From: an uncultured Alphaproteobacteria bacterium
GTDB lineage: Bacteria; Pseudomonadota; Alphaproteobacteria; Rhizobiales; Beijerinckiaceae
Assembly: GCA_963713805.1 (NCBI GenBank)
Contig: CAVQNF010000002.1
Location: forward strand, 1-64,000
Length of the DNA: 64,000 bases
Reading direction: 5' to 3'
A model generated the notes under the pieces. The model saw only the letters and a program-made list of their open reading frames with translations. It ran no database searches and had not been told where the DNA came from. This document shows, piece by piece, positions 10,258 to 35,649 of this stretch (within the stretch, counting starts at the first letter, position 1; each line of letters starts with the position of its first letter). The position numbers were made by a program, and so were the translations under genes.

Positions 10258-12203
10258 CCCGAGACCGGCGTCGCCTCGCGGTTCCTACCTTCGGTCTCAT
10301 CGAAACGCAGCAAGCGTCCCGCATTGGCGAGCACCGCGAAGGTGCCGAGATTATGCAGCACCGCGGCGACGAGCGCCCCGTTCGGCCCGAGCGCCCCGCT
10401 GGCCGCGGCGACGATCACGGAAAGCGTCCAGCCGAGGCCGAGCGCGACATTGACGGCGAGCGTCGAGCGGCAGCGCCGGCTGAGCCGGATGCAGGTCGGC
10501 ACCCGCCGCAGGTCGTCGGTGACGAGCACGATGTCCGCCGAGGCCGCCGCGATGTCGGTGCCCTGGGCGCCGAGCGCCATGCCCACCGCGCCGGCCTTGA
10601 GCGCGAGCGAATCGTTGATGCCGTCCCCGATCACCAGCGGACGGTTGCCCGCGCGAGATCTCGGCGAGAACGCGCGCCAGCTTGTCCTCGGGAAGCGCCT
10701 GCGCCTGGACATCGCCGATGCCGATGAGCGCGGCGACGCGATGCGCCACCGGCTCGCGATCGCCGGTGAGCAGGAGCTGGCGCGTCGACGCCGAGCGCGG
10801 CGAGCTCGGCGCAACGCCGAGGCCGCTTCAGGTCGCGGCTCGTCGGCGAGCAGGATCCAGCCGAGAAAGCGGCCTCCGAGCGCCACGCCGACCACCGGCC
10901 CGTCATGGGCGGGCGGCGCGGGAAAGGCGATGCCGAGCTCCGTCAAAAGTTGCGCCCGGCCGAGCGCCGCCTGGCGCCCATCGTCGAGCCCCGTCACGCC
11001 GAGACCATGCCGCTCGCGAAGCTCGCCGATGGGGCGGCGTCGGTCCGGCGAGACGGCGCCGGCAAGCGCGCGGCTCACCGGATGGGTGCTCGCCGCGCCG
11101 AGGCTGGCGGCGACCGTCATAAGCTCATCCGGCGAGGCTCCCGGCGCGGGCTCGCTCGCCACGACATGGAGACGGCCGAGCGTCAACGTGCCCGTCTTGT
11201 CGAAGATCGCCGAGGTGACGTCGGCAAGCTGCTCGAGAAAGCCCACGCCTTTGATGAGGATGCCGTGGCGCGCCGCCACCGCCACCGCCGCGACGGCGGT
11301 CGCGGGCGCGGCGAGCACGAGGGCGCAAGGGCAGGAGGCGACGAGCACGGCGAGCATCGCGTCGGTGTTGCCGGTCGCGAACCAGGTACCCGCCGAAAGG
11401 AGAAGCACGAACACGATGTAGCGGCCCGCGTAACGCTCGAGGAGGCGCGTCACCGGGGGCTTCGAGCGTTCGGCGGTCTGCATGAGCGCCACCACGCGCC
11501 CGAGCGTCGTGTCTTCGCCGGTACGCGTCACTTCGACGACGAGGCGGCCTTGCAAGTTGATGCTTCCGGCGAAGACGTTGCCGCCGGCTTCGACTTCGAC
11601 CGGCACTGATTCTCCCGTGATCGAGGCGAGATCGACGGAGGAATTCCCCTCCCGAACGATGCCGTCGGTCGGCACGCGATCGCCCGCCCATAGCTCGACG
11701 CGGTCGCCCGGGCGCAGATCCTCGGCGCCGACCTCCTCGAGCGCACCGTCCCTGGCGCGCCGGCGCGCCCCCACATGGGTCAACCGGTTCAGCGAGCGGA
11801 TCGCTTCTTGCGAACCGATGAGGCTTCTTTCCTCGAGCACATGGCCGATGATCATCACGATCGGCAGGATCGCCGCCGTCATCAGCTCTCCCGTGGCCCA
11901 GGCTGCCGCGAGCGCCATGGCGATCAGCTGATCCGTCACGCCATGCAGGCTCGGATGGCGCAGGCTGTGCCAGGCGGCGCTCAGGACCGGGACGGCCACG
12001 AGCGCCGCCGCGAGCCCCGCGACCAGGTTGGCGAGCGCGCTCTCGTCGGGGAACATTGCCTCCCAAAAAAGGGCGACGAGAAGAAGTCCACCCGCCAAAA
12101 GAGCGAGCGCGAGGCGCATCCCGAGCGACCATCGCTCGGCCCGGCTGAGAATGCTCTCCGCCGCGACGCTTTCCGGCATCGGCGCGAGGGTGGAGACGCT
12201 CAT
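10227..12203 (-). pseudogene. P1B-type (heavy-metal) P-type ATPase with no N-terminal HMA domain; at least 3 clustered frameshifts around 10.63-10.80 kb
   Basis: TGES, CPC and DKTGTLT motifs lie in the main frame. In the P-domain the main frame becomes R/S-rich junk, while the homologous sequence (AELAALGVD / QLLLTGDREPVAHRVAALIGIGDVQAQALPEDKLARVLAEISRGQ) sits in two other frames before returning to the main frame at RPLVIGDGINDSLALKAG. Confidence 0.7.
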
Positions 12204-13160
12204 TGCTCGGCTCCCGGAATGACGAGGCGCGTCGCATTGTGCGGGTCGACCGCGGTGACCTGGCCGACCTTCTTCAGGATCGAGCCGATACGCTCGTTGA
12301 ACACTTGCGTCAGCAGGGCCTCGCGCGAGGAGGTCTTCATCTCCTCGGCAAGCGCCGCGACTTCCGCCGTCTGGCTCGTGGCCTGGCTCACCCGCTCGGC
12401 GGCGGCCGCCTTCGCGCCCACGATGATCCGGTCATGGTGCTGGTTTGCGTCCTGACCCTTGCGCTCGGCGAAAGTGCGGGCCTCCGCGACGCGCTGATCG
12501 GCGCTTTGGATCGAGGTCAGCACATCCTCATAGGCTCGCTCCGCCCGCGAGCGCAGCGCGGCCGAGAGATCGACGCGGCTGATCTCGACGCCGAGGCCCT
12601 GCGTTTCGGTGTGCGAGCTCCGAAAGTCGCCGATTCATGGACGCCACCAGGTCAAGATGGAGCTGCTGGCGCTTGCCTGCCGCAAGGCTCGCCTCATCGG
12701 CCGGCCGCTCCGGCCGCGCCACCATGATGTCGTCGAGCTCGCGCGAGGCGACCAGCGACAGCGCGGAGGTTTCGTAGATGCGAAAGAGGGCTGGCTCCAC
12801 ATGGGTCGCGGAGAGCACGAAGGCCTCCGGATCGGTGATCTGGTAGTAGATATGCGCATCGAGATGCACCACGCCTCCATCTCCCGTGAGGAAGAAGTCG
12901 CCATTCGAGCGTGCGGCCGCGTCGTTTCTGAGGCCGAGGTAGTTGTTCTCGGGCGGGCGCGGGTCATTGGCGCTGCCGAGCCTGATCTGCGCGTCGCGCG
13001 CCGGGATGATCACGACCTGCTCGATCGGATGCGGCCAGGCGAGGAGGAGGCCCGCGTCCCTCACCCGGTTGAACTCGCCGAAACGGAGCACCACGGCGCG
13101 GCTCTGCGCCGGTATCTGACGGATGTTGCTCACCGACCAGAGCACGGCGAGAACGAGCAT
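12200..13160 (-). pseudogene. SPFH/band-7 protein, HflK-like, frameshift at about 12.55-12.6 kb
   Basis: N-terminal VVLRFGEFNRVRDAGLLLAWPHPIEQVVIIPARDAQI (SPFH). The C-terminus continues in another frame: ...ALLTQVFNERIGSILKKVGQVTAVDPHNATRLVIPGAEQ*. Confidence 0.6.
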
Positions 13161-13256
13161 GCCGAGGAAGACGAGGCGAAAGACGATCTGCAGGGATTGC
13201 GCCCAGGCGCCTTTCGGCTCGGGAGCTGCGATCGATGTGCGGAGCGTCGGGCGCGG

Positions 13257-14271
13257 TCATTGCGGGGGAGCCGGATTGAGCGACCAGCCTTGCGTCTGCG
13301 GCCCGTCGATCAGCACGCGGAAGGGCGCGGCGTCGGTGCGCAGGAAGATGCGCGTATTGGGGTTCGAGATGCGGTCGAGCGTGTCGAGCGAGCGCAAGAG
13401 CGTATAAAGCTTCGGATCGGTATTGAAGGCCTTGCTGTAGATGCCCGCGGCTTCCTCCCTGGACTTGGCTTCGATGCCGACCGCCTCCGCGCTCGCATTG
13501 GCGAGGAGGATGCGCGCGTCGCGCTCGGCGTCGGAGGTGATCTCGGCGGCCTTGCGCTGGCCTTCCGCCATTTGCGCGGCAGCCGCCGTCATCCGCTCCG
13601 CCGCCATGCGCGACACGGTGGCGTCGAGCGGACGGGTCGGAAGCGTCGAGCCGCTCGATGCCGAGCTGCTGGACGCTGATGCCGTAGGTATCGAGGAGTT
13701 GCTTGTCGAGCTGCGCCGCGAGCCGGTCCTCGAGCGCGGCGATCTCGACGCGGCCGGGATCCGTGTTCACGAGGCTCGCGAGCTCGAAGCTCGACACGGT
13801 GGTCTCGAGCGCCGAGCCGAGGAAGGTGCGGATCTGGCTCGCCGCTTCGTTCGGCTGGTTGCGCACGGCGCGCAGATATTGGCGCACATGGTCGGGATCC
13901 GCCTCCACGCGCCAGGCGACATAGGCCTCGACCAGAATGCGCAAGCCGTCCTTGGTGCCCACGTCCTGAAGCCCGCTCGAGGTCGTCTTGAGGCGAAGGT
14001 CGACGGGCAGGACGGTCTCGAAGGGCGGCGGCAGCTTCCATCTCAGCCCCGGCTCGATCAACACGCGCACCGGATCGCCGAAGCGGCTGACGACGAGCGC
14101 ATCGCCCGCCGTCACCAGCACCGACGAGGCGGCAAGAAGCGCCGCCACGCCGACGAGGCCGGCGATCGCGAAGCGCGCGGCCGAGGCGAAGGGCCTCGAT
14201 CCCGCGGGGCTCTCCTCGTCATGGTGGTGGTGATGATGCCCAGCCCCGTGGAGATGGTGATGATGCGTCAT
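13257..14271 (-). pseudogene. SPFH/band-7 protein, HflC-like, with a His-rich N-terminus; frameshift at about 13.65 kb
   Basis: MTHHHHLHGAGHHHHHHDEE..., then a TM segment, then SPFH (ALVVSRFGDPVRVLIEPGLRWKLP...). After LGIERL the homology moves to another frame (TLPTRPLDATVSRMAAERM...KAFNTDPKLYTLLRSLDTLDRI...). ATGA overlap with the upstream gene. Confidence 0.6.
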
Positions 14272-16136
14272 TTGTTCGGCTCCTTGTCGCCGATGTCCTC
14301 GTCCGGAACGGGGGGCGCGAGCGTGCGGAAGCTGCGCATGTCGATGATGGTCTCGCCGCCAGACCCGGCGATGCGGTGGTCGAGAAGCGTGATCGGCGCG
14401 GAAGCGAAGTCGCGCGTGATCGCGGAAAGATAGCGCTCGAAGAGATAGGGCGATCCCGCCGCGACGAAGGCACGCTCATCGGTCGCGAAGCGCAGGGCAT
14501 CGGATTGCGCGAGCGTGACGCGCTCGACCGCGGCGGCATTTGCGCTCGCGAGCTTCTCGGTCGCGCTTCGCCCCGCCTCGCTCAGCGACGTTATGGCGCG
14601 CCGCCGCGCCTCGGAGATCATGGCCTCCGACCTGATGCGCGCCGCCTGGACCTCATGATAGCTGTCGGCGGCCTTGGCCGGGGGATGGATCGCCTCGACG
14701 ATCACGGCGACGAGCTCGATCCCCGTGTCGGCGCGGTCGAGCGCCGTCTGAAGATCGTGGCGCAACTCTTCGGCCACGCCCTCACGCTTCTCGCCCAAGG
14801 CGCCGAGAAGCGTGCGCGTCGAGAAATAGCGGGCCAGCAGGCGGCCGGCGAAGGCGCGCAGAAAAGCTTGCGGGTCGCGCGCCCGATAGGCGCTCGCGAG
14901 CGCCGCCTCGTCGCTCAACCCGACACGCCAGATGAGCTCGACATCGACATCGACGACCTGAAAGGCGGAGCGGCCCGAAGCATCGCTCGCGATGAGATAG
15001 CTCGTCTCGGTGGGATGGCTTTGATCCCAGAGGCGGTCGGCGCCAGAAGGCGCCGCGTCCTCGACGCCGACCGCTTCCGCGCCCGCCATCCCCGCCTGGG
15101 CGTCGGGAGCGCCGAGCGACAAGGCGTGAACTTCGCCGAAATCGACGCGGCGGACGATGCCCAAGGGCCAGGGCAAGCCGATATGCAACCCCGGCTGCAA
15201 GACCGCGACGGGGCGCCCGAGACGCTCGTAAATGCCGCGCTGATCGGCGGCGAGAAGCGTCACGCCGGAAATTCCCCAGGCGAAGAGCAAAAGCAGGAGC
15301 GCCACCGGCATGATCGCGGATCGCACGAATCCGAGTGCCCAGCTCCGGGACAGATCGATGCCGATCTGATCTTGCAGCGACTGACGCCAGGCGCCTTGCG
15401 AGACAAGCTCGGGCGTGAGCAAACCCGCGGCCGCGCTCGAGACGCAGCCGAGCGCGCGCGTCGGGCCGGACGCCGGTTGAAAGAAGACCGCGAGCGAGCG
15501 CGCGGCAAGCTCCAGGGACACGAGGAACAGGAAAAGCCGCAGGATCGGCTCGACGAAACCCGCGAGGAGGAACCCATACCCCTCCATCAATGCGAGCACG
15601 GCTTCGATCGTGAAAGTCAGGAGGGCGAGGCGCAAGAGCCGCCGCAGCGCCAAAGCTTCCGGGAGCCGCAAGCCGATGGAGCCCGCATAGGCGCGCTCGG
15701 CGAGAAGCAGCGGAAAAGCCGCGGCCAGAAGAATGGCGCCGCGCATGAAGAGCATGCGGCTCAAAAGCCCGACCTCCGCCGGCACGGGCCAGCGCCAGGT
15801 CAGCGCCAGGATCGCCAAAGCCGCGCCCGCGAGCATCACCAGCGCTTGCGCGGTCCCCGCGAGGGAGGCTCGGAGATCGGCTGGCAGCGGACCGAAGGGC
15901 ACGATCCGGGCGAGCGGCGCCCGAAGCCATGTTGGGAGAAGGCCGCGCGCCGCCCGCGTCCTCGAAGCCTCGGCAGACGCAGGCGGGCCTTGCTCGCGCA
16001 AGGCCGAGGAACGCGCCCCGGCGACGAGCGCGCAGGCGATGAAGGCGCCCGACACGAGGGCGAGCGACGCGCCGGCCAAGCGCAGGAAGGATTGATCATA
16101 GGCGTATCTTGCAAGCAGCCCGCCCGTGGCGCGCAA
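14268..16136 (-). CDS. Large polytopic membrane protein with a C-terminal SPFH/band-7 domain
   Basis: Uninterrupted 622-aa ORF with an N-terminal multi-TM region and an SPFH-like core (GIYERLGRPVAVLQPGLHIGLPWPLGIVRRVDFGEVHALSLG). It is the first of three tandem SPFH genes upstream of the P-type ATPase. Confidence 0.55.
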   Translation of the reverse strand: MRATGGLLARYAYDQSFLRLAGASLALVSGAFIACALVAGARSSALREQGPPASAEASRTRAARGLLPTWLRAPLARIVPFGPLPADLRASLAGTAQALVMLAGAALAILALTWRWPVPAEVGLLSRMLFMRGAILLAAAFPLLLAERAYAGSIGLRLPEALALRRLLRLALLTFTIEAVLALMEGYGFLLAGFVEPILRLFLFLVSLELAARSLAVFFQPASGPTRALGCVSSAAAGLLTPELVSQGAWRQSLQDQIGIDLSRSWALGFVRSAIMPVALLLLLFAWGISGVTLLAADQRGIYERLGRPVAVLQPGLHIGLPWPLGIVRRVDFGEVHALSLGAPDAQAGMAGAEAVGVEDAAPSGADRLWDQSHPTETSYLIASDASGRSAFQVVDVDVELIWRVGLSDEAALASAYRARDPQAFLRAFAGRLLARYFSTRTLLGALGEKREGVAEELRHDLQTALDRADTGIELVAVIVEAIHPPAKAADSYHEVQAARIRSEAMISEARRRAITSLSEAGRSATEKLASANAAAVERVTLAQSDALRFATDERAFVAAGSPYLFERYLSAITRDFASAPITLLDHRIAGSGGETIIDMRSFRTLAPPVPDEDIGDKEPNK

Positions 16137-16384
16137 GCCTTCCCCGAGCAGGAGAAGACAGGCGAGGAAGCTCGAAGAGCCGATGAGATCAGCAGGCGAC
16201 GGCCACGCGCGACCTCCGCGAAGGCCGCCTCGCGCGGCAGCTCCGTCGTTTCCAACGCCGTCCGTTGATCGAGCAAACAGGCACCTCGCCGCATCCGCGA
16301 TGGTCGGGCTCTTGCGGACGCCGGGGGGAAATTAGCAAAGCGGCGTGCCGAGCGCCATGCGGCGGAAAAACGGGCTCCGAGAAG

Positions 16385-16830
16385 AACTGGTTCCCCGCCT
16401 GCGCGGGGATGAGCGGGAGAGGTTTGGCCCCCCCGCTCAGGCCCGCAGCCTCACCCCCGCTCATTCCCGCAGCCTCACCCCGCTCATTCCCGCAGCCTCA
16501 CCCTCGCTCATTCCCGCGAAGGCGGGAATCCAGGCTCGTAGGGCAGCTCCGAGAACAGCTGGTTCCCCGCCTGCACGGGGATGAGCGGAGAGGTTTGAGC
16601 CCTCGCTCATTCCCGCAGCCCCACCCCCGCTCATTCCCGCGAAAGCGGGAATCCAGGCTCGTAGGGCAGCTCCGAGAACAGCTGGTTCCCCGCCTGCGCG
16701 GGGATGAGCGGAGAGGTTTGAGCCCTCGCTCATTCCGGCAGCCCCACCCCCGCTCATTCCCGCGAAAGCGGGAATCCAGGCTCGTAGGGCAGCTCCGAGA
16801 ACAGCTGGTTCCCCGCCTGCGCGGGGATGA
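16385..16830. repeat. Tandem array (about 123-bp period, about 3.5 units) of double-hairpin palindromic elements
   Basis: Recurring modules are ggttccccgc-ctgc-gcggggatgagcgg and gctcattcccgc-gaaa-gcgggaatccagg, separated by a ctcgtagggcagctccgagaacagctgg spacer and gctcattcccgcagcc(c/t)cacccc linkers. Direct repeats are visible at 16506, 16629 and 16752. Confidence 0.8.
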
Positions 16831-16891
16831 GCGGAGGGGTGAAGGCGCCGGCCCCCTCACCTCTCCCGCAGGGTCCCGCAGGGAGAGGTGA

Positions 16892-18910
16892 TCAGCGGCA
16901 GAGGTTCACGCGCGTGCGGCAGACCTCGATGAAGCTCGAGTTGAAGCTGATGAGCGAACCAAGCGGGTTGCCGTTCTCGTCGAGCGTCGGGGCGCTGGAG
17001 TTCTTCTTCATCGTCGATCCGCCCGAATTCCCGGCTTGCGAGCCGCTTGTATCGGAGACTTGCACGATGAGGCTCGCGAGCACCGGATCGATGAAGGAGA
17101 AGACCGGCGTTCCGTTGCCCTGATCCATGCTGAAGGGCACGGGCGGGAGCGAGTTGTTCGCCGCCGTGACGAGAAGCGTGCCGGGCACGAAGGTGATGTC
17201 GAAATTCGGCGAGCTCACGCCGCCGGCGAAGATCTTGAAGCTTCCCGGCGAGCCCGTGGGCGCGTTCGTCGTGAAGCTGAGCATGCCGGTAAGCGCGCTC
17301 GGCCCGAGCCCCCCGGGGAACGGCCCGAAGCTCGCGCTGAACACGGGCTCCGGCGTGCCGACCACCTGCGTTTCGTTGCTCGCCGTGATGGTGAGCGGCG
17401 CCGGCGTGATCGTGCCCGTCGCGTTGACGACGGTGAGCGTGTAATTCCCGCCGCCATTGCCGTCGTTCACCGTGAGCGGGCCGAGCGCCATGGCGCGGCT
17501 TCCCGCATTCGCCGAAGCGAAGCTCTCGGCGAGCCCGCTCACGCTGTCGGTCCCCTTGAGGCCCGACACTTGCGCGCTCACGCTCGAGCCCGTGGTGCCG
17601 TCGAACACCTTGTTGTCCGACACTGCGCTCACCGTGAGCTGCGCCTTGTCGATCGTGCCCGTGGCGTTGACGAAGGTGATGGCGTAATTCCCGCCGCCAT
17701 TGCCGTCGCTCACCAAACCCGACGCCGACAGCGTGCTGCCATTCTGGCCGAGCACATTCTTCGAGCCGAAGGCTTGCGTGTAGCTCGCCGTGTCGTCGAC
17801 GTTGTGGCCCGTGACGATCACGGTTCCACCTGCCGCTCCGCTCATCCCCGCGAAAGCGGGGATCGAGTTCTTCGAGCCATTCCCGGCCGAGCCTGGGTTC
17901 CCGCCTGCGCGGGAACGAGCGGAGGGGGTGCCGCCGCTCACGTCGATGCGGCCCGTCACCTTCGCGAGCTTCGTCGCCTTGATGGTGACGCGCCCGCCCG
18001 AGCCGTCGCGGTTGCTCGCCGAAATGCGGCCCGCTCGCGAAGACGCTGCCGCCCGCCGTGAGCCACACATGGCCGCCGCGCATCGCGCTGCCCGTCGCGC
18101 GAATCATGCCGGTGTGATTGCCGGCGAGCGCATAGACATTGCCGCCCGCGGCCTTGAGCTCGGCTTGCGCCGCCGCGATCGCGCCCTTGTTCCTCACATC
18201 GCCCTTGCCGTAGCGCACCGCCATGCGGCCGCCGCCGACCGACATGTCCTTGAGGAGCACCTCTTGGCCGGCGCCCAGGCCCACCGTCCCGTTCGGCGCG
18301 TTGATCGAGCCCGAATTCACCACCGAGCGCGCGATGAGGAAGACATCCCCGCCGGAGGACGAGATCGAGCCGAGGTTCTTCACCATCCCGTCGCTTCGCG
18401 CCCTTGCCCTCGAAGCGCAAGGTCGAGCCCGCCATGAAGTTCTGGTTCGAGATGTCGAGCGAGGAGGCGACGAAGGAGCCGCCCGTCGTGATGACGCCGC
18501 TCTTGCCGACCACCACGCCTTGCGGGTTCACGAGATAGACCGAGCCCGTGGCGCGCGAGCGTGCCCATGATCTGCGAGAGCGATGCCGCCGGTGACGCGA
18601 TCGAGCGTCGCGCCCATGCCGTTGTTGATCTTGACCGTGCCGCTCTTGCCGATCGAGAAGCTGTTGAAATCGATGATGCCGCGCTGGCTCGATTGCGTGA
18701 TCGTCTCGGTGAGGCCTTGCGTGCCGATCGAGCCCGTGCCTGCGACAAAATGCCCGCCTTGCGGGAGCATGTTCGCCGGGACGGCGACGGGCGAGCCCGC
18801 CTGCGCCGCCGAGGCCGCAGCAAGGAGTGAAGTGCTTGCGAGCGCCGTGCTCGCCGCGAGGCTTGCGAGGAAGCGCCGATGGGCACCACGTCGGGCCGTG
18901 CCGGGAGCCA
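16892..18910 (-). pseudogene. Filamentous-hemagglutinin/TpsA-like exoprotein (TPS secretion domain plus MBG-like repeats), frameshifted; no TpsB partner in the window
   Basis: Signal peptide MAPGTARRGAHRRFLASLAASTALASTSLLAAASAAQA. TPS domain LPQGGHFVAGTGSIGTQGLTETITQSSQRGIIDFNSFSIGKSGTVKINNGMGATLDRVTGG. The sequence continues in other frames (NPQGVVVGKSGVITTGGSFVASSLDISNQNF...; ...ATGSAMRGGHVWLTAGG). The C-terminal part has GNGGGNYxxTxVNATGTI...LT(I/V) repeats. Confidence 0.65.
17841..17930. repeat. One copy of the double-hairpin element inserted in frame inside the FHA-like coding sequence
   Basis: ccgctcatccccgcgaaagcggggatcgag...gggttcccgcctgcgcgggaacgagcgg. It is translated as ...GNPGSAGNGSKNSIPAFAGMSGAAGG... 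inside the ORF. Confidence 0.7.
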
Positions 18911-19280
18911 TGCGCCCCCGCTCGCTCTCGAACACGCCCGCCTCGCGGCAGGCCCCATCAGAATGACGAATGGACATAGTGCCCCTCATTGCGTCAGCAA
19001 GGCCGAAATCGGCCTTGAGGCTTTGCCTCATCAGATCGCTTATGAAACTAGCCTCAACTCTAACTTCGACGTGAGCACGTGGAAGATTGAGCGCCCGTGA
19101 CGTTCGTAAGGCACGCCGAGCACTCTCATACAGCCTCTATTCCCTTTAACACAGCCGGGCCCCACAAGATATCGTGATCGTTGCGGCCCATTTCCCTGTG
19201 CAATTGTCCGGCTTATCTACTACGGATAAATTTGTAAATGGCCGTTCACATGTACCAACTTTTGTTAGCGATGGCCAACA

Positions 19281-19352
19281 AGCCTGGATTCCCGCTTGCG
19301 CGGGAATGAGCGGAGGTGAGGCTGCGGGAATGAGCGGGGGTGAGGCGCGGAA
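19281..19352. repeat. Double-hairpin element fragments (inverted orientation relative to the 16.4-16.8 kb array) abutting the GIY-YIG start
   Basis: cctggattcccgcttgcgcgggaatgagcgg aggtgaggctgcgggaatgagcgggggtgagg is the reverse complement of motifs in the 16.4-16.8 kb array. Confidence 0.7.
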
Positions 19353-19640
19353 ATGAGCTTCTACGTCTATATTCTGGCGAGCCGACGCAACGGCACGCTC
19401 TATATCGGCATGACGGACGATCTCAATCGGCGGGTTTTCCAGCATCAGGAAGGAGTGTTCCCGGGATTCACCAAAAAATACGGGGTCAAAATTTTGGTCT
19501 GGTTCGAGCAGCATGAAACCCGCGAGAGCGCCTTTCGTCGAGAGCGCGCTTTGAAGAAATGGAATCGAGCCTGGAAGCTGGCGCTCATCGAGCGCTCCAA
19601 TCCGACTTGGCGTGATTTAGCCTTGGAACTTGAACCGTGA
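19353..19640 (+). CDS. GIY-YIG nuclease family protein (small, UvrC-N-like)
   Basis: MSFYVYILASRRNGTLYIGMTDDLNRRVFQHQEG...: the GIY-YIG core (YVYIL..GTLYIG..DL.RR...H). 95 aa. The ATG lies inside a repeat motif variant (gcgcggaaATGAGCttc). Confidence 0.85.
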   Translation: MSFYVYILASRRNGTLYIGMTDDLNRRVFQHQEGVFPGFTKKYGVKILVWFEQHETRESAFRRERALKKWNRAWKLALIERSNPTWRDLALELEP

Positions 19641-19666
19641 GCCGTCATCTCATACCTCTCCGCCGT

Positions 19667-19808
19667 CCCCGCTATGCGCTACATTTCCGCTCATCCCCGC
19701 AATGCACTACATTTCCGCTCATCCCCGCAATGCACTACATTTCCGCTCATCCCCGCAATGCACTACATTTCCGCTCATCCCCGCAATGCACTACACATTT
19801 CCGCTCAT
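19667..19808. repeat. 28-bp direct tandem repeat, 5 copies (ccccgcaatgcactacatttccgctcat)
   Basis: Adjacent copies at 19667, 19695, 19723, 19751 and 19779 (the last carries a 2-bp insertion). No spacers, so not CRISPR. Confidence 0.8.
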
Positions 19809-19925
19809 CCCCGCGAAGGCGGGGATCCAGTTCTTGGAGCTGCCCTATAAGCCTGATTCCCGCTTGCGCGGGAATGAGCGGGGGTGAGGCTGCGGGAATG
19901 AGCGGGGTGAGGCTGCGGGCATGAT
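19801..19925. repeat. Complete double-hairpin element plus tail
   Basis: ccgctcat-ccccgc-gaag-gcgggg-atccag-ttcttggagctgccctataagcctg-attcccgc-ttgc-gcgggaat-gagcgg, then gggtgaggctgcgggaatgagcgg. Confidence 0.75.
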
Positions 19926-19945
19926 GGGTGGGCTCAAACCTCTCG

Positions 19946-20035
19946 GCTCATCCCCGCAATGCCCTACATTTCCGCTCGCCCCCGCAATGCACTACATTTC
20001 CGCTCGTCCCCGCAATGCGCTACATTTCCGCTCAT
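19946..20035. repeat. 28-bp tandem repeat, 3 degenerate copies
   Basis: ctcatccccgcaatgccctacatttccg / ctcgcccccgcaatgcactacatttccg / ctcgtccccgcaatgcgctacatttccg. Confidence 0.7.
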
Positions 20036-20145
20036 CCCCGCGAAGGCGGGGATCCAGTTCTTGGAGCTGCCTTATAAGCCTGGATTCCCGCTTGCGCGGG
20101 AATGAGCGGGGGTGAGGTTGCGGGAATAAGCTGGGGCGAGGCTGC
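20028..20145. repeat. Second complete double-hairpin element plus tail
   Basis: Near-identical to 19801..19925 (ccgctcatccccgcgaaggcggggatccagttcttggagctgccttataagcctggattcccgcttgcgcgggaatgagcgg...). Confidence 0.75.
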
Positions 20146-20177: not shown

Positions 20178-22445
20178 TCAGAAGCTCTTCGACAGCCCGG
20201 CGAGGATCGTGCGCCTTTGCCCGAATTGCGGCGCCGCGACCCCGATGCCGGTGCCGTTGCGAAGCTCGTATTTGCGGTCCGTGAGGTTGATCATGTCGAG
20301 GCGGGCCGTCATCTTGCCCATTCCGGGCGCCTCGAACTCATGCTTGATGCCGGCGTTGACCTGCACGTAATTCGGCTGGCGCTGGGTGTTGGCGAAGCCC
20401 GATCTCAGCCCCGAGCCGGAGATCAGATCGGTGGTGAGCAGCGTGTCGACCGAGCCGATAGGAGGCGCCGCCCGAGATCGTGAAGCGCTGGTCGTGATCG
20501 AGATAGACCCAATGGATTCGCGACGAAGGCGAGCTCGTCGGCGGCGAAGAAGAACTGGCTCGAGATGATGTTCTTTCCTTGCGCGCGCGAATAGGCGAAA
20601 TTTCCGTAGAGTGAAAGATTGTCGATCTGGTAGGAGGCCGTGACCTCCGTCCCGTAGACCTTCCCATGCTGATAATTGAAGGGCGCGAAGACGAGCGCCT
20701 GGCCGAATTGGCCTTCATCGATCAGATCATTGGCGCGTTTGTAATAGGCGTCGAGGCCGAGCTGGAAATCGGGTCCGAATTTCTGGATGACGCCGGCGTC
20801 GAAATAATTCGCGCGCTCGGGCTTCACGGGAGCTATCCGCGGTGACGCTCGGAGCCGCCGTCGTGTTGGCGAATTTGGAGATCGTCTCGGGTGCGATCAA
20901 TTCCAGGGGCGGGGGCGTGAAATAGCGCGCGTAGCCGAGATGGACGGTGGTGCCGTCGAGCGGCTTGTAGACGAGATTGACGCGTGGTGAGAGCTGGTTC
21001 TTGTCGATGAATTGGAAGCTCTCGTCGAAGCTCGCGCCGTAGTTGAGCGTCAGCTTGTCGGAGATCTTCCACTCGTCCTGCGCGTAGAGGCCCGCGAGAT
21101 AGCCGATCTTCCTGCTGTTGTCGGAGATGGCGAAGGGCTGATCGATCGGGTTCCCGTTCGCGTCGAGCGGCAGCACGGTCGACAGATTGCTCGAGCGCGC
21201 GCGTTCCACATCGGCGAAGAAGCCGGCGCGAAAGGTGTGCGACGGATCGATCTGGTAGCTCAGATCGCCTTGAAGGCCGTTGGCGAAATTCTCATGGCGC
21301 ACATTGGAGGCGACGCCATTGAACAGGACGATCGCCGACCGGATCGGGGAAGAAATGCGTCAAGGTGTATCGGCTGAAATAGGCGAGCTGCATGTTCAGG
21401 TCGCCGAGCGATTTCTGCAAGGCGAGGATGTTGAAATTCGAATTCCTCCAATTGCTGCTCGCGCAGGCCCGCCGAGTTGAAATCCGAAATGCCGAAGGCG
21501 GTGAAGGCGGGCATCTGCCCGGGATTGTTGGGAAGCCGGAATTGGCTCACCGCCGTTCCGGAGATGAAGCTCAAGCGCGTGCTCTCGTCGATGATGCCGG
21601 AAAGGTAGAGAAAGCCCCTGCCCTGCTCGGTGAAATCCTTCACCGGAACGAGCGAGTGGGTGGGATTTTCGATGCCGATGTTGTTCTGGAGGTAGCTTCC
21701 GGAAACGAAGTAGTCGAGCTTTCCGGTCGAGCCCCCATAAGAGAAGCTCGGCAGGAAGGTCTGGCGCTGCCCGCCGTAAATCGACACTTCGCCACCGGGC
21801 TCGAGCGTTCCGCTCTTCGTCTCGATGTCGACGACGCCGGCGGTTCGGTAGCCGTATTCGGCCGGCAGCGCTCCGGTGATCAGATCGATGCGGCGCGCGA
21901 AGCGGGTGTCGAACAATTGCGAGAAGCCGCTGATCGTCTCGGGGATGATGATGCCGTTGATCCGAAATTGCAGGTTCGCATGATCGCCGCGCACATGGAG
22001 CTGGCCGAAGGAGTCCTGGGCAACGCCGGGCGCCTGAAGCAAGGTCTGGCTGAGCGATGCATTGTTGCCGAGCGGCTGGGTATCGATCGCCTCGCGGTTG
22101 ATCTCGTAGCTCGAGGCGCCGACCGCGGTCGAGATCTGGTTGCGCGCCTGGTCGAGCCGTGCGGCCGTGACCGTGATGTCGAACCGGTCGCTTTGCCCGA
22201 CTTCGGTCACCACGCTTCTCGTCGGACCGGGCTGCACGGCCGGGCCGCTGGTCGCCGGCGCGGCGGGCTCCCCGGTGCCCGCTGTCGTCTGAGGCGGGGC
22301 GGTGCTCGCAGGGGCTTGAGCGAAGGTCTGGGCTTGAGCGAAGGAGGTGAAACGAAACCAAGGCCCAGGAGGAGACAGAGGAGGAGACAGAGGAAGAAAC
22401 GCCTGAAGGCAACGAAAAAAGCGAAAGGCACCGGGGACACTCCAT
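20178..22445 (-). pseudogene. TonB-dependent outer-membrane receptor, at least 6 frameshifts
   Basis: Plug and barrel segments are spread across frames (VTAARLDQARNQISTAVGASSYEINREAIDTQPLGN...; RHENFANGLQGDLSYQI...; ANYFDAGVIQKFGPDFQLGLDAYYK...). The C-terminal ...RRTILAGLSKSF* carries the TonB-box-end aromatic residue. Signal peptide FFLCLLLCLLLGLGFVS. Confidence 0.75.
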
Positions 22446-22860: not shown

Positions 22861-24097
22861 ATGGATGTCTACCAGCGTTTGTCCGTCGCGAAGCGGGTGA
22901 ACGGAGCGGGGCTGCTGACGCGCCTCGGCGGCAGCCTCATGGATGCGCAAACGCTCGACGCCATGCGGGAGGCCGCGGGCGCCTTCGTCGACATCGCCGA
23001 ATTGCAGACGCGAGCGGGCGAGATCATCGCCGCGCCATACGGGAGCCCAAGCGGGCATCGTCACCGGCGGCGCGGCCGCGGCACTCACCCTTGCGACGGC
23101 GGCCTGCATCGCGCGCAACGATGTGGCGAAGATGGAGCGCCTGCCGGATACCGAGGGGATGGCCGACGAGGTCATCATCCACCGCGCCCATCGCACCGGC
23201 TATGACCACGCCATCAGGGCGGCAGGCGCGCGCCTCGTGGAGATCGGCCTCAATGATCGCGGGGTGGGCGCCGGCGTGCGTGATCTCGAAGCTTGGGAGA
23301 TCGAAGCGGCGATCGGGCCGAAAACGGCGGCGATCGCCTATACGGCGACGCCCGATCTCGAGCCCGCGCTATCCCGCGTCGTCGCGGTGGCGGAGCGTTT
23401 CAAGCTCCCGGTCATCGTCGATGCCGCGGCGCAATTGCCTCCCAAGGAGAATCTTCGCCGCTTCATCGAGGAAGGCGCGGCCCTCGTCGCCTTCAGCGGC
23501 GGCAAGGCCATCCGGGGGCCCCAAGGAACAGGAATCCTGTGCGGCCGCGAGGAACTCGTCGCCTCGGCCTTGATCCAGATGCTCGATCTCGACATCCTTC
23601 CCGAAACCTGGACGCCGCCCGAAGGTTTGCTCGCCCGGCATTTCGCCGATCGCTTTCCCCATCATGGCCTCGGACGCGGCTTCAAGGTCGACAAGGAATC
23701 GATCGTCGGGCTCGTGGTGGCGCTCGAGCGTTTCGTCGCTTGCGACCTCGAAGCGGAGATCGAGGGACGCCGCGAGCTCCTCTCGCGCATCGTCCGGACG
23801 ATTTCCGAGCTTCCCCATTGCCGCGCACGCGAGATCAGGCAGACGAAGGGGAAATATCCGGCGCTCGACATCGCGATCGATGTGGCGGCGCTCGGCAGCG
23901 ACGCTTATGCGGTGAGCCGTGCGCTGCAGCGCCATGACCCGCCGGTGCATCTGGGAGAGCGCCACGCCCGGCAAGGCGTCCTCGTCGTCGAACTCCGCGG
24001 GACTTCGGCCGGGCGATGAGGAGATCATCGCCCGTGCCCTGCGCATCGTCCTCACCGGCGCGGCGAGGACCTGTGCGACAACGAAGGAAAAGCAGTG
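22861..24097 (+). pseudogene. SelA-like / DgaE-like fold-type-I PLP-dependent enzyme, 2 frameshifts
   Basis: MDVYQRLSVAKRVNGAGLLTRLGGSLMDAQTLDAMREAAGAFVDIAELQ...; shift at about 23040 to ...IVTGGAAAALTLATAA...AFSGGKAIRGPQGTGIL...; the C-terminus continues in a third frame (...GDEEIIARALRIVLTG...*). GAGGGAGGGA RBS. Confidence 0.6.
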
Positions 24098-24867
24098 ATG
24101 TCCACGCGGCTCTTCGATCTTTCCGGGCGCACCGCGCTCGTCACCGGCTCGTCGCGCGGCCTCGGGCGCGCCATGGCGGAGGGTCTCGCGGCAGCCGGCG
24201 CCCGCATCGTCCTGCACGGCCAGGATGAGGCACCGCCTCTCCGCGGCGGCCGAGGCGATGCGCGGCGAAGGCCATGATGTGCGAAGCGTCCGCTTCGACA
24301 TCGCCGACGAGGCGGCGATCCTTACCGCCTTCGCGCGCCTCGATGCCGACGGCGTCGCGATCGACATCCTCGTCAACAATGCCGGCATCCAGCTGCGCAA
24401 GCCGATGCTCGAGCTTGCGACGCAGGAATGGCGCAAGGTGATCGACGCCAATCTCACGGGCGCCTTCATCGTCGGCCGCGAGGCAGCGAAGCGGATGGTG
24501 CCGCGCGGACGCGGGAAGATCGTCAATATCGGCTCGCTCACGAGCGAAGTGGCGCGCGCCACCATCGCGCCTTACGCGGTGTCGAAGGGCGGCATCAAGC
24601 TGCTCACGCGGGCCATGGCGGCCGAATGGGCCGCGCATGGCATCCAGGCGAATGCGATCGGGCCGGGCTACATGCTCACCGACATGAACAAGGCTCTCAT
24701 CGAGGACGAGAAATTCGACGCCTGGGTGAAGGCGCGCACGCCGGCGAAGCGTTGGGGGCGCCCCGAGGAACTGGTCGGGGCCGTGATCTTCCTCGCCTCG
24801 CGAAGCTTCCGATTACGTCAACGGCCAGATCATCTATGTCGATGGCGGCATGCTTGCGGTTCTGTGA
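24095..24867 (+). pseudogene. Gluconate 5-dehydrogenase-like SDR, 2 frameshifts
   Basis: MSTRLFDLSGRTALVTGSSRGLGRAMAEGLAAAGARIVLHG; shift at about 24235; ...DILVNNAGIQLRKP...NIGSLTSEVARATIAPYAVSKGGIKLLTRAMAAEWA...; 1-nt insertion at about 24815; then ...SDYVNGQIIYVDGGMLAVL*. Confidence 0.65.
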
Positions 24868-24885
24868 GCGCGGCGCGGCCCTGCC

Positions 24886-25404
24886 ATGACCTCGCAAGAG
24901 CTCCCCTATCGCACCAATGTCGGGATCGCGCTCTTCAACAGGCAAGGGCGCGTGCTGATCGCGCATCGTTTGCGCAATGACGGGCCGGAGATCATCCTTC
25001 CCGGCCATGAATGGCAAATGCCGCAAGGCGGCGTCGACCCGAACGAAGAGGCGCTCTCGGCGGCGCGTCGCGAATTATGGGAGGAGACGGCGGTCTTGAG
25101 CGCCGATTACCTCGGCGAGGTTTCCGACCCGATGACCTATGAGTTTCCGCCCTATGCCGGGCCGTGGCATCGGCTCTGCGCCTTCCGCGGCCAGCGCCAG
25201 CGCTGGTATGCGTTCCGCTTCACGGGGGATGATGGCGAGATCGATGTCGGCCGCGGCGAAGGCGGCGCCGACCCGGAATTCTCGCACTGGCGCTGGGAGC
25301 GGCTCGACAGAGTGGCGGCTCTCGTCGTGCCCTTCAAGCGCGAAATCTACGAGCGCGTGGCTCTCGAGTTTCGTGCCTTCGCCGAACCGGCACAATCAAG
25401 TTGA
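24886..25404 (+). CDS. rppH: RNA pyrophosphohydrolase RppH (Nudix hydrolase)
   Basis: LPYRTNVGIALFNRQGRVLIAHRL...WQMPQGGVDPNEEALSAARRELWEETAV: Nudix box. Intact. Confidence 0.8.
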   Translation: MTSQELPYRTNVGIALFNRQGRVLIAHRLRNDGPEIILPGHEWQMPQGGVDPNEEALSAARRELWEETAVLSADYLGEVSDPMTYEFPPYAGPWHRLCAFRGQRQRWYAFRFTGDDGEIDVGRGEGGADPEFSHWRWERLDRVAALVVPFKREIYERVALEFRAFAEPAQSS

Positions 25405-26869
25405 ATCCAGCCTCACCCGAAAGGCATCGACCAGGTCCGCACATTGGTGAAGCTCTTCATCGCTTCCACCACGCCTTCCTTGTAGCCAAGGCCTGAATCC
25501 TTGATGCCGCCGAACGGCGACATCTCGATGCGGTAGCCGGGCACTTCCCAGATGTTGACCGTGCCGACCTCGAGCTCCTGGATGAACCGCGTGATGTAGT
25601 CCATGCGGTTGGTGCACACGCCCGACGACAAGCCGTAGGCGGTCGAGTTCGAGATGCGGATGACGCTCGTCGATCTCGTCCGGAACCCGGATGATCGGGA
25701 TGACCGGGCCGAAGGTCTCCTGATGCACCAGCTCGCAATCGTAAGGCACGCGATCGACCACGGTCGGCGGAAAGAGCGCGCCGTTCGCGGGGCGCTCCGT
25801 GGAGCAGCTCGGCGCCTTTTGCGACGCGCGTCGTCGACGCGTCGCTCGAAAAGCTTCGCCGCCTCTTCGTTGATGACCGTGCCGACGTCGACGGAAGGGT
25901 CCATCGGATCCCCGCATTTCAGCTTCTTGGCCTTGGCGAGGACGAGCTCGACGAAATCGTCGGCGACGCTCTCGACGACGAGAATGCGCTTCACCGCCGT
26001 GCAACGCTGGCCCGAATTCTTGGTCGCGCCCTGCACGGCGAGCTCGGCCGCCTTGTCGAGATCGGCGTCCTCCATGACGATCAGCGGGATCGTTGCCGCC
26101 GAGCTCGAGCACCAGGCGGCGATAGCCGGCCTTCTCGGCGATGTATTTGCCGACGCGCACCGAGCCGGTGAAGGTGATGAGGTCGCAGTCCTCATCGGTG
26201 ATCATGGCATCGCCCATGGTGCGCGGATTGCCGGTGACGACGGAAAGCATCTGCGGCGGCAGCCCGGCCTCGTAGAGCACGTCGGCGAGCGCGAGCGCGG
26301 TCAGCGGGCGTGAGCTCGGTCGGCTTCAGCACGACGCGGTTGTTGGTGGCGATCGCGGGGGCGAGCTTGTGGCTCACCATGTTGAGCGGGATGATTGAAC
26401 GGGGTGATCGCCGAGATGACGCCGAGCAGCGGCAGGCGCGTCGTGAAGATCTTGCGGTTCTTGCCGTTCGGGCTGATGTCGCAGGAATAGATCTCGCCGT
26501 CGTCCTTGATGGTGAGCTGCGCCGCGAAGGACCAGACGTCGAAGGCGCGGCTTGCTTCGTAAAGCGAATCCTTCCAGCACAACCCGGATTCGGCGGTGAT
26601 CAGCCGCGCGAACTCTTCCTTGCGGTCGCGCAAGATCTCGGCCGTCGTCTGCAGGATGCGCTGACGCTCGATAGCGCGTGAGCTTCGGCCTGAAAGGCGC
26701 GCGCCTGGCGAAGGCGTCCCGCACATGCTCGGGCCGTCCGGCCGGAACGGTGCCGATCACCTCGTTGGTGTAGGGATTGAGCACCTCGACGACGCTCGTC
26801 GGTCGTCGACGAGCGTGCCGGCGATCCGCATGCATTCCTTGCGGATGGCCGGCTTCGCTTCGATATTCA
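25396..26869 (-). pseudogene. phnY: Aldehyde dehydrogenase, probably phosphonoacetaldehyde dehydrogenase PhnY (by context), at least 6 frameshifts
   Basis: ALDH-family segments lie in three frames ([23 protein letters not shown]...[14 protein letters not shown]; ...[12 protein letters not shown]; [24 protein letters not shown]; [49 protein letters not shown]; [37 protein letters not shown]...; ...[32 protein letters not shown]). GAGAGG RBS. Adjacent to phnA and phnW. Confidence 0.65.
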
Positions 26870-26930
26870 TCGCATTCACCTCTCGGTGACGCGTAGCTCT
26901 CGCGCGAGCTGCCTCGCACCTGTCAACGGC

Positions 26931-28256
<1,326 letters not shown>

Positions 28257-34071: not shown

Positions 34072-35649
34072 CTACTTCCTGGGAACCGAAATGACGCCGC
34101 CGCCCAAAAAATTCATCCGGTTCATGTTCAGGGATTGGCGCAGTGAGATGGACCCATTGCCGCGTTGACCGTGGACGGCGAAAGCCTCGTGGTGATGCTT
34201 CGCAAGATCGGCGTCGACGTGACGGCCGGAAAGCTCGGAGCGATCATTCGCGATTTTCAATCGTCCCGGATCGGCCAGGGAATCGCGGTGATAGCTCGAG
34301 ACATTGAGCCGGCCACGCATCACGTACGGCTGGGCATCGGCCTTCGACCAATCTCCCCAGCGCAGATATTCGCCCTTCATCGGGTGGGATGGCACGGAGA
34401 TCTCATACTTCGGATGCGTCGGCGGCGCGATCTCCGACCCACGGACATGCCGGTTCTCTTCACTCCATTCATGCAAGCGGAAGTGATGAGATGAGGCGAT
34501 TGCCGCAAGGTGTGAATCATCGCGATCTCGCGGCGGATGAAAACGCCGCATATCGAAATCATCCCTGTCCAGCCGCGCATACGATCGTGATCGCGATCCC
34601 GGTCGTGGTCGTGATGCCGCACGTGGTGAGGCGGTGGGGGCGCGAGGAGGCGGTGGCGGAGGCGGCGGGGGTGGCGGCGGTGGAGGCAGGGGTGGAGGCG
34701 GTGGAGGCGGTGGAGGCGGTGGAGGCGGTGGCGGGGACGTGGCGACCACGATCTGGGACCGGGGCGGAATCTGACCCGTCTTCGCGAAGTTCTGGACGAT
34801 CTCGTTGAGGAAATTATCGAGGGCGAGCGAGGACCAATCCCATGATTGCAACAGGGCGGCGAATGAATTGGCCGTGCCGATGTTGTTGGCGGCGGCCTGC
34901 TGGTCGCTCGGCTTCACATTCGACCCGCCACTTTGCCCATTCTTGCTCGTCATGGAGGCGTTGTAGGCATTGATCAGCGCGGCGGACGCCTTGAAGGCCG
35001 GCGAGGGCGGCGTGAAGGCCGAGATCGCGCGGATGGCGAAGCCCGTGCGGGTGACCGTCTCCGTGACGCCGCCCGACGACATGGTCATCACGCCGTAACC
35101 CAGCAAGGCTTGCGTGCCTTCCTTATCGGATTGGCTGACCGTGAGGATGCCCCCGCGCAGGCCGATGGTGGCGAAAGGCGTGGTGACGGTCGCGCCGCCC
35201 GTATGTGTCGCTTGGCCGCCGACGACGCGCAGGACGCCTTTGCCGAGCGAGACGGCCATCTCTCCCTTGGCCGCGGCCGGATCGAACACGAATTTGTCGA
35301 TCACGATGGATGAATTCGGGCCGATATCGAGCGTCGTCTTGTCGATGAACACGAGTTGCACGCTGCCCGAAGGCGAGGTGTCGACCTTTTCGTTCGAGAC
35401 GACCCCCGAACCGACCTGAATCACCTTCATGTTGCCGCCCGGCGGCGTGCCGGAGGAGAGGACGTTCGCGGCCCCGGCGGTCCCCACGGGATCCGCGAGC
35501 GCGAGCTTCGGGGACATGAGGGAGAGCGCGGCGACGCCGGCCAGAAGGCAAAGGCGAAGCGGAGCCGCGGCGCCCGCTTCTCGCAAGGGCGCACGCAGCT
35601 GGGGTGGCGGCGGGGGAGTCCAGGACGCGTGCAGATTTCGTTTCGCCAT
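34072..35649 (-). CDS. FecR-domain protein with a roughly 30-residue polyproline linker and an uncharacterised C-terminal domain
   Basis: Signal peptide, FecR-like core (GSVQLVFIDKTTLDIGPNSSIVIDKFVF...VSLGKGVLRVVGG), then the linker, then a roughly 170-aa C-terminal domain. No cognate ECF sigma factor nearby. Confidence 0.55.
   Translation of the reverse strand: MAKRNLHASWTPPPPPQLRAPLREAGAAAPLRLCLLAGVAALSLMSPKLALADPVGTAGAANVLSSGTPPGGNMKVIQVGSGVVSNEKVDTSPSGSVQLVFIDKTTLDIGPNSSIVIDKFVFDPAAAKGEMAVSLGKGVLRVVGGQATHTGGATVTTPFATIGLRGGILTVSQSDKEGTQALLGYGVMTMSSGGVTETVTRTGFAIRAISAFTPPSPAFKASAALINAYNASMTSKNGQSGGSNVKPSDQQAAANNIGTANSFAALLQSWDWSSLALDNFLNEIVQNFAKTGQIPPRSQIVVATSPPPPPPPPPPPPPPPLPPPPPPPPPPPPPPRAPTASPRAASRPRPGSRSRSYARLDRDDFDMRRFHPPRDRDDSHLAAIASSHHFRLHEWSEENRHVRGSEIAPPTHPKYEISVPSHPMKGEYLRWGDWSKADAQPYVMRGRLNVSSYHRDSLADPGRLKIANDRSELSGRHVDADLAKHHHEAFAVHGQRGNGSISLRQSLNMNRMNFLGGGVISVPRK

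Follow-up and report, generated by a model that had tools for sequence, protein, structure and literature searches.

Can a short palindromic repeat persist as a translated part of a secreted protein, and what would keep it there? This question is raised by a 64,000-nt stretch of DNA from an uncultured alphaproteobacterium of the Beijerinckiaceae (contig CAVQNF010000002.1, positions 1 to 64,000; hereafter the window), in which a gene for an exoprotein of the TpsA/filamentous haemagglutinin (FHA) type contains two convergent hairpins. An earlier note on this DNA had described a complete double-hairpin copy within the FHA/TpsA-like coding region at 17841-17930, read through without a stop as about 30 extra residues, and had regarded it as a member of a dispersed repeat family, as an insertion resembling a MITE (a miniature transposable element with inverted repeats) and as a possible route to antigen variation. 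The analysis described here followed up these claims. It is probable that a doublet similar to the Ssn-related motifs (SRMs) was inserted in frame into an ancestral TpsA-like gene and has been retained as a tolerated, translated loop.

A two-hairpin repeat within the TpsA-like gene

The codon-aligned unit was located at 17837..17923 on the minus strand, so that the borders given earlier were a few bases off. Its 87 nt are read as 29 codons without a stop (SARSRAGGNPGSAGNGSKNSIPAFAGMSG), which matches the peptide quoted in the earlier note. The conserved core of the element (17838-17922) consists of two convergent 26-nt hairpin modules and a 33-nt spacer. Pattern search and copy alignment placed module 1, the 5′ one in gene orientation, at 17897..17922 on the minus strand (CCGCTCGTTCCCGCGCAGGCGGGAAC), where it encodes SARSRAGGN. 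The variable spacer (17864..17896, minus strand) encodes roughly PGSAGNGSKNS, and module 2 lies on the opposite strand (17838..17863, plus strand; CCGCTCATCCCCGCGAAAGCGGGGAT) and gives IPAFAGMSG in the gene frame. The two modules are inverted copies of each other, and the terminal inverted repeat reaches (CT)CCGCTC...GAGCGG(AG). When 14 copies, taken from the window and from related loci, were aligned, the borders at CCGCTCAT...GAGCGG were sharp and the flanks unrelated. Thus, the sequence itself, the pattern search and the copy alignment all bear out that a complete double-hairpin copy lies within the coding region.

A 99-nt stretch comprising the element was predicted to fold as RNA into one long hairpin (-60.7 kcal/mol, z = -4.5 versus shuffles) and as DNA into a stem that closes two small hairpins (-34.6 kcal/mol, z = -4.9 versus shuffles). 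The element sits within a stop-free open reading frame (ORF) at 16892-18070 on the minus strand. The open frame is uninformative by itself, because copies of this repeat are usually open in most frames: the gene-borne window copy is open in five of the six frames, and the 121 metagenomic copies among the matches listed (see below) are typically open in three to five. No Rfam family was found for the element; microRNA-precursor models gave sub-threshold matches that reflect the long-hairpin shape and were rejected. Peptide strings of the element such as IPAFAGM and FPRKRES were not found in papers.

Repeat family in the window and in metagenomes

A search with the module pattern CCGCTCRTYCCCGCGNNNGCGGGRAY (up to two mismatches) gave 14 matches in the 64-kb window, all within 16391-20109, whereas none was expected from 100 shuffles. 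Apart from the copy in the gene, the modules form an array directly after the gene's stop codon (16387..16846), with one solo module and three tandem 123-bp units, and a cluster around a gene for a small nuclease resembling SsnA (19284..20121). In this cluster, a solo module occupies 19288-19313 and doublets lie at 19801-19881 and 20028-20109, together with arrays of 28-nt and 24-nt half-modules. The segment 17837-17877 is 93% identical to 19800-19840 and 20027-20067 (window repeat family D9). Tandem arrays of half-modules flank the doublets (16431-16517, 19625-19840, 19910-20069, 19313-19346, 19881-19914), one with a 28-nt period (CATCCCCGCAATGCACTACATTTCCGCT) and one with a 24-nt period (GGAATGAGCGGGGGTGAGGCTGCG); one 24-nt unit is also found in frame within the gene copy of locus L004.

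A metagenome scan with the doublet pattern detected doublets on at least 120 contigs, with sharp borders, unrelated flanks and many different neighbour genes. Together with the 14 modules of the window, these matches confirm that the element belongs to a dispersed family. Among the matches listed, the spacer is 26-45 nt long and variable in sequence, starting with CCAG and ending with CTGG, and none of the 121 copies is demonstrably within a gene. Long ORFs span 19 of these 121 copies, but only one side was ever protein-like on inspection and by Pfam, and they were rejected as further in-frame copies. Thirteen of the at least 120 doublets (L021-L140, for example L125) adjoin a gene for an ABC-F (EttA-like) ATPase, which presumably represents one conserved intergenic site from many related strains. 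Independent insertions would then be fewer than the number of matches suggests.

The borders of the element were examined for a target-site duplication, as the earlier note had proposed. No direct repeat was present at the gene copy, and in 116 metagenomic copies identical flanks were not enriched (k = 2-8, offsets 0-4), with the sole exception of a marginal 3-mer signal (10 versus about 3 expected). No recurrent transposase-like ORF was present within 1.5 kb of 120 metagenomic copies among the matches listed. The only ORF-bearing units with the same ends encode a 95-aa GIY-YIG protein, and no transposase-bearing parent insertion sequence was found. The element is like classical MITEs (Correia/NEMIS, Nezha, ERIC) in being small and non-autonomous and in having terminal inverted repeats, and some of these are also fused in frame to ORFs. 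It differs from them in the lack of a target-site duplication and of a parent insertion sequence with a DDE transposase, its ORF-bearing relatives being ssnA cassettes. With arms that resemble the NTS repeat of Neisseria, a classical MITE is not supported.

State of the insertion site in relatives

Relatives of the host gene were collected by protein searches with its C-terminal ORF and its corrected N-terminus and by a scan of species-representative genomes. They show 80-95% identity and come from metagenome-assembled genomes (MAGs) of Beijerinckiaceae and Hyphomicrobiales from soil and peat. The orthologue alignment that had been suggested as a check placed the insertion site between KVTGRID(V/A)S and GG(T/R)VI(V/I)T. 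The site contains a hairpin-free short loop of 7-9 residues in L003, L008, L011 and L012 and in proteins P0121, P0123 and P0124; a half element with one hairpin (33 nt) in L009; a 75-nt doublet in L010; an 84-nt doublet plus a 24-nt half-module in L004; an 87-nt doublet in the window and L005; and two tandem copies with a 105-nt period in L001. The short-loop locus L008 is syntenic with the window over 20.2-27.4 kb. Outgroup two-partner secretion (TPS) proteins with 37-59% identity have a turn of 2-4 residues at the site (IDxSG-xx-GGxI). Since these distant proteins have the short turn, the 29 codons are an insertion and the short turn is the ancestral state. All gene-borne copies agree in site, orientation and frame. 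The empty, half, short, full and doubled states of this one site mean that an NTS-like doublet has persisted in translated form across substantial divergence.

A distance tree of the TPS region contained filled loci in both deep clusters, which differ by 14-21% at the nucleotide level, with the short-loop loci nested among the filled ones. The presence of filled loci in both clusters indicates that the insertion event is old and shared, and not a recent event in the window genome.

One might suppose that the segment is a native low-complexity Gly/Ser coding loop whose likeness to intergenic repeats is secondary, since it is common to several relatives at the same site and always in frame. However, each arm agrees with the repeat family over 26 nt, as do the ends of the spacer; members of the family are present in at least 120 metagenomic contexts that are unrelated, and the outgroups have only the turn of 2-4 residues. 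A native loop is thus extremely improbable.

The short loops ASGTHSKS and GSDTNGKA (L003 8805-8879, L008 10826-10900) faintly resemble the GSAGNGSKNS of the spacer (17864-17896), both in DNA (GGCTCGG...AAYGG...AAG) and in peptide (G-S-x-x-N-G-(S)-K). This resemblance has also to be considered for the possibility that a loop already present received one single module on each side in two separate insertions. Solo modules do exist (16391 and 19288 in the window, L008 9806, L014 1951, and the half element of L009), and doublets vary greatly in the sequence and length of their spacers. In contrast, the gene-borne spacer shows homology over its first ~15 nt and its last ~8 nt to those of the intergenic doublets at 19801 and 20028, and the CCAG and CTGG at the spacer ends are family-wide and extend the palindrome. 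We therefore consider two independent insertions unlikely and prefer the arrival of an entire doublet.

ssnA-like gene and identity of the repeat

The gene within the window cluster (19353..19640, plus strand) encodes a 95-aa single-domain GIY-YIG nuclease (Pfam GIY-YIG, E = 7.7e-16). It lies ~1.4 kb from the element and has modules on both sides (19288 and 19801). Chenal et al. (2025, PMC11893778) described SsnA, a GIY-YIG nuclease of 94 aa whose binding and cleavage of single-stranded DNA take place at the NTS hairpin CGTCATTCCCGCGMAVGCGGGAATCYRG; SRMs are the generalised form of NTS, flanking ssnA genes across many phyla (PMC11893778). The window ORF shows 59-61% identity to the N. gonorrhoeae ORF that is flanked by NTS repeats. 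The module CGCTCATYCCCGCGAARGCGGGRATCCAG differs from the published NTS essentially by one extra base (CGCTCAT). Both gene-borne modules have the form of an asymmetric hairpin of 20-50 nt with a C right after the palindrome, as described for SRMs; their layouts are CCGCTCAT-CCCCGC-GAAA-GCGGGG-AT-C and CCGCTCGT-TCCCGC-GCAG-GCGGGA-AC-C. Flanking of an ssnA homologue by the motif on both sides, the other feature of SRMs, was also observed in the window.

Bracketing by modules was seen for ssnA-like ORFs in nine loci, including the window, L006, L007, L042, L087, L109 and L141. In L141, the start codon is preceded at a distance of 14 nt, and the stop codon followed at 5 nt, by perfect 30-nt inverted repeats. 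This unit of ~363 bp (1461-1823) has perfect 30-nt terminal inverted repeats around a 288-nt ORF, and bracketed ssnA-like ORFs are also present at L152 278-787 and L157 321-741. The doublets of 75-94 bp look like an ORF-less derivative of the ssnA cassette. In finished replicons of Azospirillum, Sinorhizobium, Shinella, Novosphingobium and Neisseria, hairpins specific to the lineage lie on both sides of the ssnA homologues; in Azospirillum lipoferum 4B, the cassette sits between sufB and sufC. Hairpin flanking of the GIY-YIG gene was set aside as a new finding, having already been published (PMC11893778). Compared with L006 780-1012 and L007 467-699, the window has ~160 bp fewer upstream of the ssnA-like gene (window 19271-19346), indicating that this region is structurally polymorphic. 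The stretch absent from the window holds a duplicated ssnA-like 3′ end, a 28-nt repeat and the left hairpin.

All gene copies have a CAT-to-CGT change beside the palindrome. It was considered whether this change disables Ssn cleavage, but this was rejected because the modules flanking ssnA in L141 share the same CGT variant with the gene-borne module.

The likeness to NTS/SRM thus comprises the ~28-nt hairpin with the frame CGTCAT-YCCCGC-loop-GCGGGRAT-CYRG, the clustering of many copies around particular genes, and the 94-95-aa single-domain GIY-YIG gene flanked on both sides by the motif. Unlike in the published cases, the modules here have one extra base, and the copy is a translated doublet inside a coding sequence. 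The architecture is also that of REP/REPIN/BIME: a long hairpin is built from two short palindromic units in inverted orientation around a variable spacer, and the units occur as singlets, doublets and tandem arrays, lack a target-site duplication, and are associated with an enzyme gene that is flanked by the repeats. The enzyme, however, is a GIY-YIG nuclease and not a Y1 (HUH) transposase as in REP/REPIN with RAYT, and there is no GTAG-type head. No literature linking GIY-YIG to REP, REPIN or MITE was found under those names. Judging from the sequence comparisons, we file the element as a variant SRM doublet that is REPIN-like in architecture and not a classical MITE. The mobility of SRMs is putative.

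Retention in frame and conservation of the hairpin arms

In L010, which derives from a MAG assembled from short reads, the ORF runs for 2618 codons without interruption and includes SARSRESGNPGHSKNSIPAFAGMSG. This copy is wholly within the coding sequence, in frame and kept in an intact gene for which empty-site homologues are known. To account for the differences between gene copies, five or more indels are required (deletions of 12 nt and 3 nt, an addition of 24 nt, a duplication of 105 nt and a loss of ~54 nt), every one of them a multiple of three in length. By comparison, only 36% of the 121 intergenic copies among the matches listed have a length divisible by three. The restriction to in-frame changes indicates that the host gene stayed under selection in those lineages.

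Within the gene-borne copies, the arms are almost invariant, silent sites included, whereas the spacer diverges freely. In a descriptive comparison, codons specifying the same amino acid differed in 9% of cases (22/245 pairwise) in the hairpin arms and in 32% (335/1048) in the flanking codons, for which the TPS and beta-helix codons of the same loci were used. This greater conservation of the arms than of the surrounding gene at silent sites is a further argument against a native loop. Clearly, it is not the protein that holds the arms constant; candidate causes are gene conversion from other copies, an ongoing interaction with Ssn and a structural role.

The same conservation could be taken to mean that the hairpins are kept as Ssn target sites that serve the host by modulating recombination, transformation or deletion formation. 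Clusters of the same motif lie on both sides of the gene, an ssnA-like gene is next door, and many loci have different internal deletions. Moreover, a role of NTS and SsnA in transformation has been published, and NTS clusters around variable Neisseria genes (PMC11893778). Gene conversion, however, explains the arm conservation equally well, and the filled loci L001 and L010 are without ssnA or further modules over 5.5 kb and 10 kb on either side. The frequency of deletion variants is biased by the search, and no breakpoint lies at the element itself. We therefore judge that hairpins kept for the benefit of the host are improbable. It is likewise an outside chance that working Ssn sites embedded in the coding sequence, together with the flanking clusters, govern the cutting of single-stranded DNA in a giant adhesin-like gene, and through it recombination, uptake or the formation of deletions. 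If they did, the short loops that lack hairpins in close relatives would be traces of excised hairpins, and a coding-embedded part of the Ssn/SRM genome-dynamics system would exist in a free-living soil alphaproteobacterium. The ssnA-like gene (19353-19640) and the modules at 17838-17922 would provide a substrate pair for Ssn action inside genes.

No support was obtained for antigen variation. What is observed is a slow length polymorphism between lineages, with no switching, in relatives from soil and peat. Thus, while the in-frame insertion into a gene for a surface protein is real, its framing as a MITE and as a source of antigen variation is not supported.

Host gene and single-base insertions in the record

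The host gene (16892..19031, minus strand) encodes first a signal peptide and a TPS domain, followed by the inserted loop, by YDG and MBG_2 domains and by a conserved C-terminus that ends with FNSSFIEVCRTRVNLCR; the 392-aa C-terminal ORF is intact. As written, its N-terminal 1 kb changes frame four times and occupies all three reading frames. When five related loci were aligned with it, these changes were traced to four single-base insertions found only in the window, near 18030, 18397, 18554 and 18581, whereas the five aligned loci have no private indels. After frame correction, the N-terminus scored 78.3 bits against Pfam TPS (PF05860; cut-off 33.5; profile positions 3-239 of 252), whereas the uncorrected fragments scored only 17.6-18 bits. 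An AlphaFold2 model of the close homologue P0127 is a beta-helix (predicted local distance difference test, pLDDT, > 90) that matches the secretion domains of EtpA, HMW1, HxuA and FHA (E = 2.6e-20 to 2e-4). These results establish that the host is a genuine TPS-domain exoprotein gene, in agreement with its earlier description as FHA/TpsA-like. The element-encoded residues 322-358 of P0127 were modelled as coil (pLDDT 44-54) between two confidently modelled rungs, which fits a tolerated and probably disordered surface loop.

Relative to L010, whose ORF spans 2618 aa, the host gene lacks ~2100 central codons; this deletion is in frame, with TVIVTGHNV|DDTASYTQAFGSKNV at the junction. Six loci have differing large internal deletions in the TpsA-like gene (window 17795-17800, L001 ~6820, L002 ~3160, L008 near its end, L011 ~11040, L015 10183-10215), each retaining the TPS domain and the C-terminal 100-300 residues; the frequency of such variants is biased, since the searches favoured short proteins keeping the N- or C-terminus. 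They could be real 'mini' variants, decay or assembly collapse. A TpsB partner (Omp85/POTRA) was absent from the ten window ORFs scanned, by which the fragmented ORFs were only partly covered, and the called genes around the relatives L001-L005 included no Omp85/POTRA family, several of them carrying no Pfam record.

The frame changes raise the possibility that the host gene is a dead remnant, in which the open frame is a leftover and from which no segment-bearing protein is made in the window genome. In addition to the four changes between 18581 and 18030, this would agree with the absence of ~2100 codons relative to L010, with an even larger deletion in the syntenic L015 and with the lack of a TpsB partner among the ORFs scanned. 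To evaluate the frame changes, other parts of the window were compared with orthologous loci. A GC3 frame plot had proved too noisy for locating frameshifts because the window has a G+C content of 63.7%, and alignments of orthologous loci were used instead. Over ~13.5 kb, 32 single-base insertions were found only in the window, ~2.4 per kb. Deletions were rare, so that almost all events were insertions, mostly outside homopolymers, and many genes were broken. The insertions numbered six at 10294-16378 (five inside genes), four in the TpsA-like gene at 17931-18818, five in a gene for a TonB-dependent receptor at 20178-22204, four at 22867-25390 and 13 at 25410-27400; examples are 10654, 10785, 10815, 12600, 13647, 16302, 20455, 20517, 20833, 21331 and 21439, with further ones at 23030, 23991, 24228, 24802 and 25665-27238. 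The comparison loci L008 (a short-read MAG) and L015 had zero to two private indels.

Since the same window-only insertions occur in every compared stretch, pseudogenisation specific to this gene was dropped as an explanation. The insertions look like an artefact of sequence quality in the record and not like the decay of one gene, and readings of the window that are based on ORFs need caution. Together with the in-frame nature of the internal deletion and the intact C-terminal ORF, this makes a dead remnant doubtful, although it is a more serious alternative than those considered above.

Proposed history of the insertion

In the explanation that we prefer, an SRM-like doublet would have landed in an ancestor of Beijerinckiaceae-like soil bacteria, at a site shortly after the TPS secretion domain where a short turn joins two rungs of the beta-helix, arriving as one unit with its spacer. 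It would have survived because its length was a multiple of three and its frame free of stops, giving a translated Gly/Ser/Ala/Arg-rich loop that the beta-helix tolerated. Long inheritance, possibly with exchange between paralogues, may then have brought in-frame deletions, an in-frame duplication and the added 24-nt half-module. The nearly unchanged arms at silent positions indicate that something acting on the DNA maintains them, and this process may be gene conversion from other copies or continued recognition by Ssn. The benefit to the host is most likely none: the element would be tolerated selfish DNA that makes one loop variable in length. The mode of spread, the disorder of the loop and the reason for the arm conservation are thus proposed with more reserve than the insertion itself.

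Several observations weigh against this history. Short and filled alleles are intermixed among the relatives, which could reflect an ancient insertion with later losses or gene conversion between paralogues, and the likeness of the short loops to the spacer may be either a trace left by lost hairpins or a coincidence among Gly/Ser codons. Only five loci, in pairs that are not independent, entered the silent-site comparison. The gene is unreadable here without four corrections and is heavily shortened, so that its translation in the window is putative. Recognition of the modules by the local Ssn protein is also putative. The published SRM search pattern, HGTCWYN(0-2)YYVSBRHN(0-5)WNVSBRGN(0-2)RNCYNB, gives no strict match in the window because of one extra base in the 5′ hexamer (GCTCAT instead of GTCAT). 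When the pattern was relaxed by one base, 11 matches were obtained, all in 16387-20108, and the two gene-borne modules each differ from it at one further degenerate position.

Comparison with known palindromic repeats

In-frame palindromic insertions are already known from the RPEs of Rickettsia and the BRE of Bordetella, and the present locus adds an SRM-type repeat to them. What is unusual here is the long retention combined with hairpin arms conserved at silent sites. RPEs are palindromic repeats of ~100-150 bp that lie in frame in coding genes and are kept in orthologues (PMC10969869). R. conorii has 44 copies, of which almost half lie in ORFs (PMC10969869), and the peptide segments were judged to be compatible with the fold (Ogata et al. 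2000, 2002, as summarised in PMC10969869). The element of the window resembles RPEs in adding a peptide segment in frame and in its retention in orthologues. It differs in its free-living soil host and in that none of the 121 family copies outside the host gene, among the matches listed, is demonstrably intragenic. Rickettsia is listed among the SRM-rich genera (Chenal et al., PMC11893778), and a possible connection between RPEs and SRMs is offered as a lead only. Besides RPEs, in-frame MITE-like repeats have been documented (PMC3184786).

BRE repeats are GC-rich, 75-91 bp long, mostly intergenic, often tandem and variable in copy number (Hot et al. 2011, PMC3110155), and some copies are wholly within coding sequences (PMC3110155). 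The size of the repeat and the presence of copies inside coding sequence are thus shared with the present element, whereas the inverted doublet and the nuclease association have not been reported for BRE. BRE was rejected as the identity of the element, its sequence being unrelated (TTTTGGCCGCGGGCCGCCCAAGGCAAAAAAGCCCCC...).

The locus represents an intragenic event tied to the Ssn/SRM system, which was described only in 2025; the terms 'intragenic' and 'within genes' are absent from the main text of the Ssn paper (PMC11893778). For annotation, it means that peptides of the IPAFAGMSG or SARSR type can occasionally be genuine parts of proteins.

Other loci in the window

Long GC-rich tandem repeats with short periods (9-24 nt) are present at 52381-52930, 43161-43628 and 34636-34737, and the run at 52.4-52.9 kb would encode Gly/His-rich repeats (GGHEGGGHDGG...). 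Another surface-structure locus lies at 38975-41428, where an 817-aa ORF contains outer-membrane usher and PapC C-terminal domains of chaperone-usher pilus assembly.

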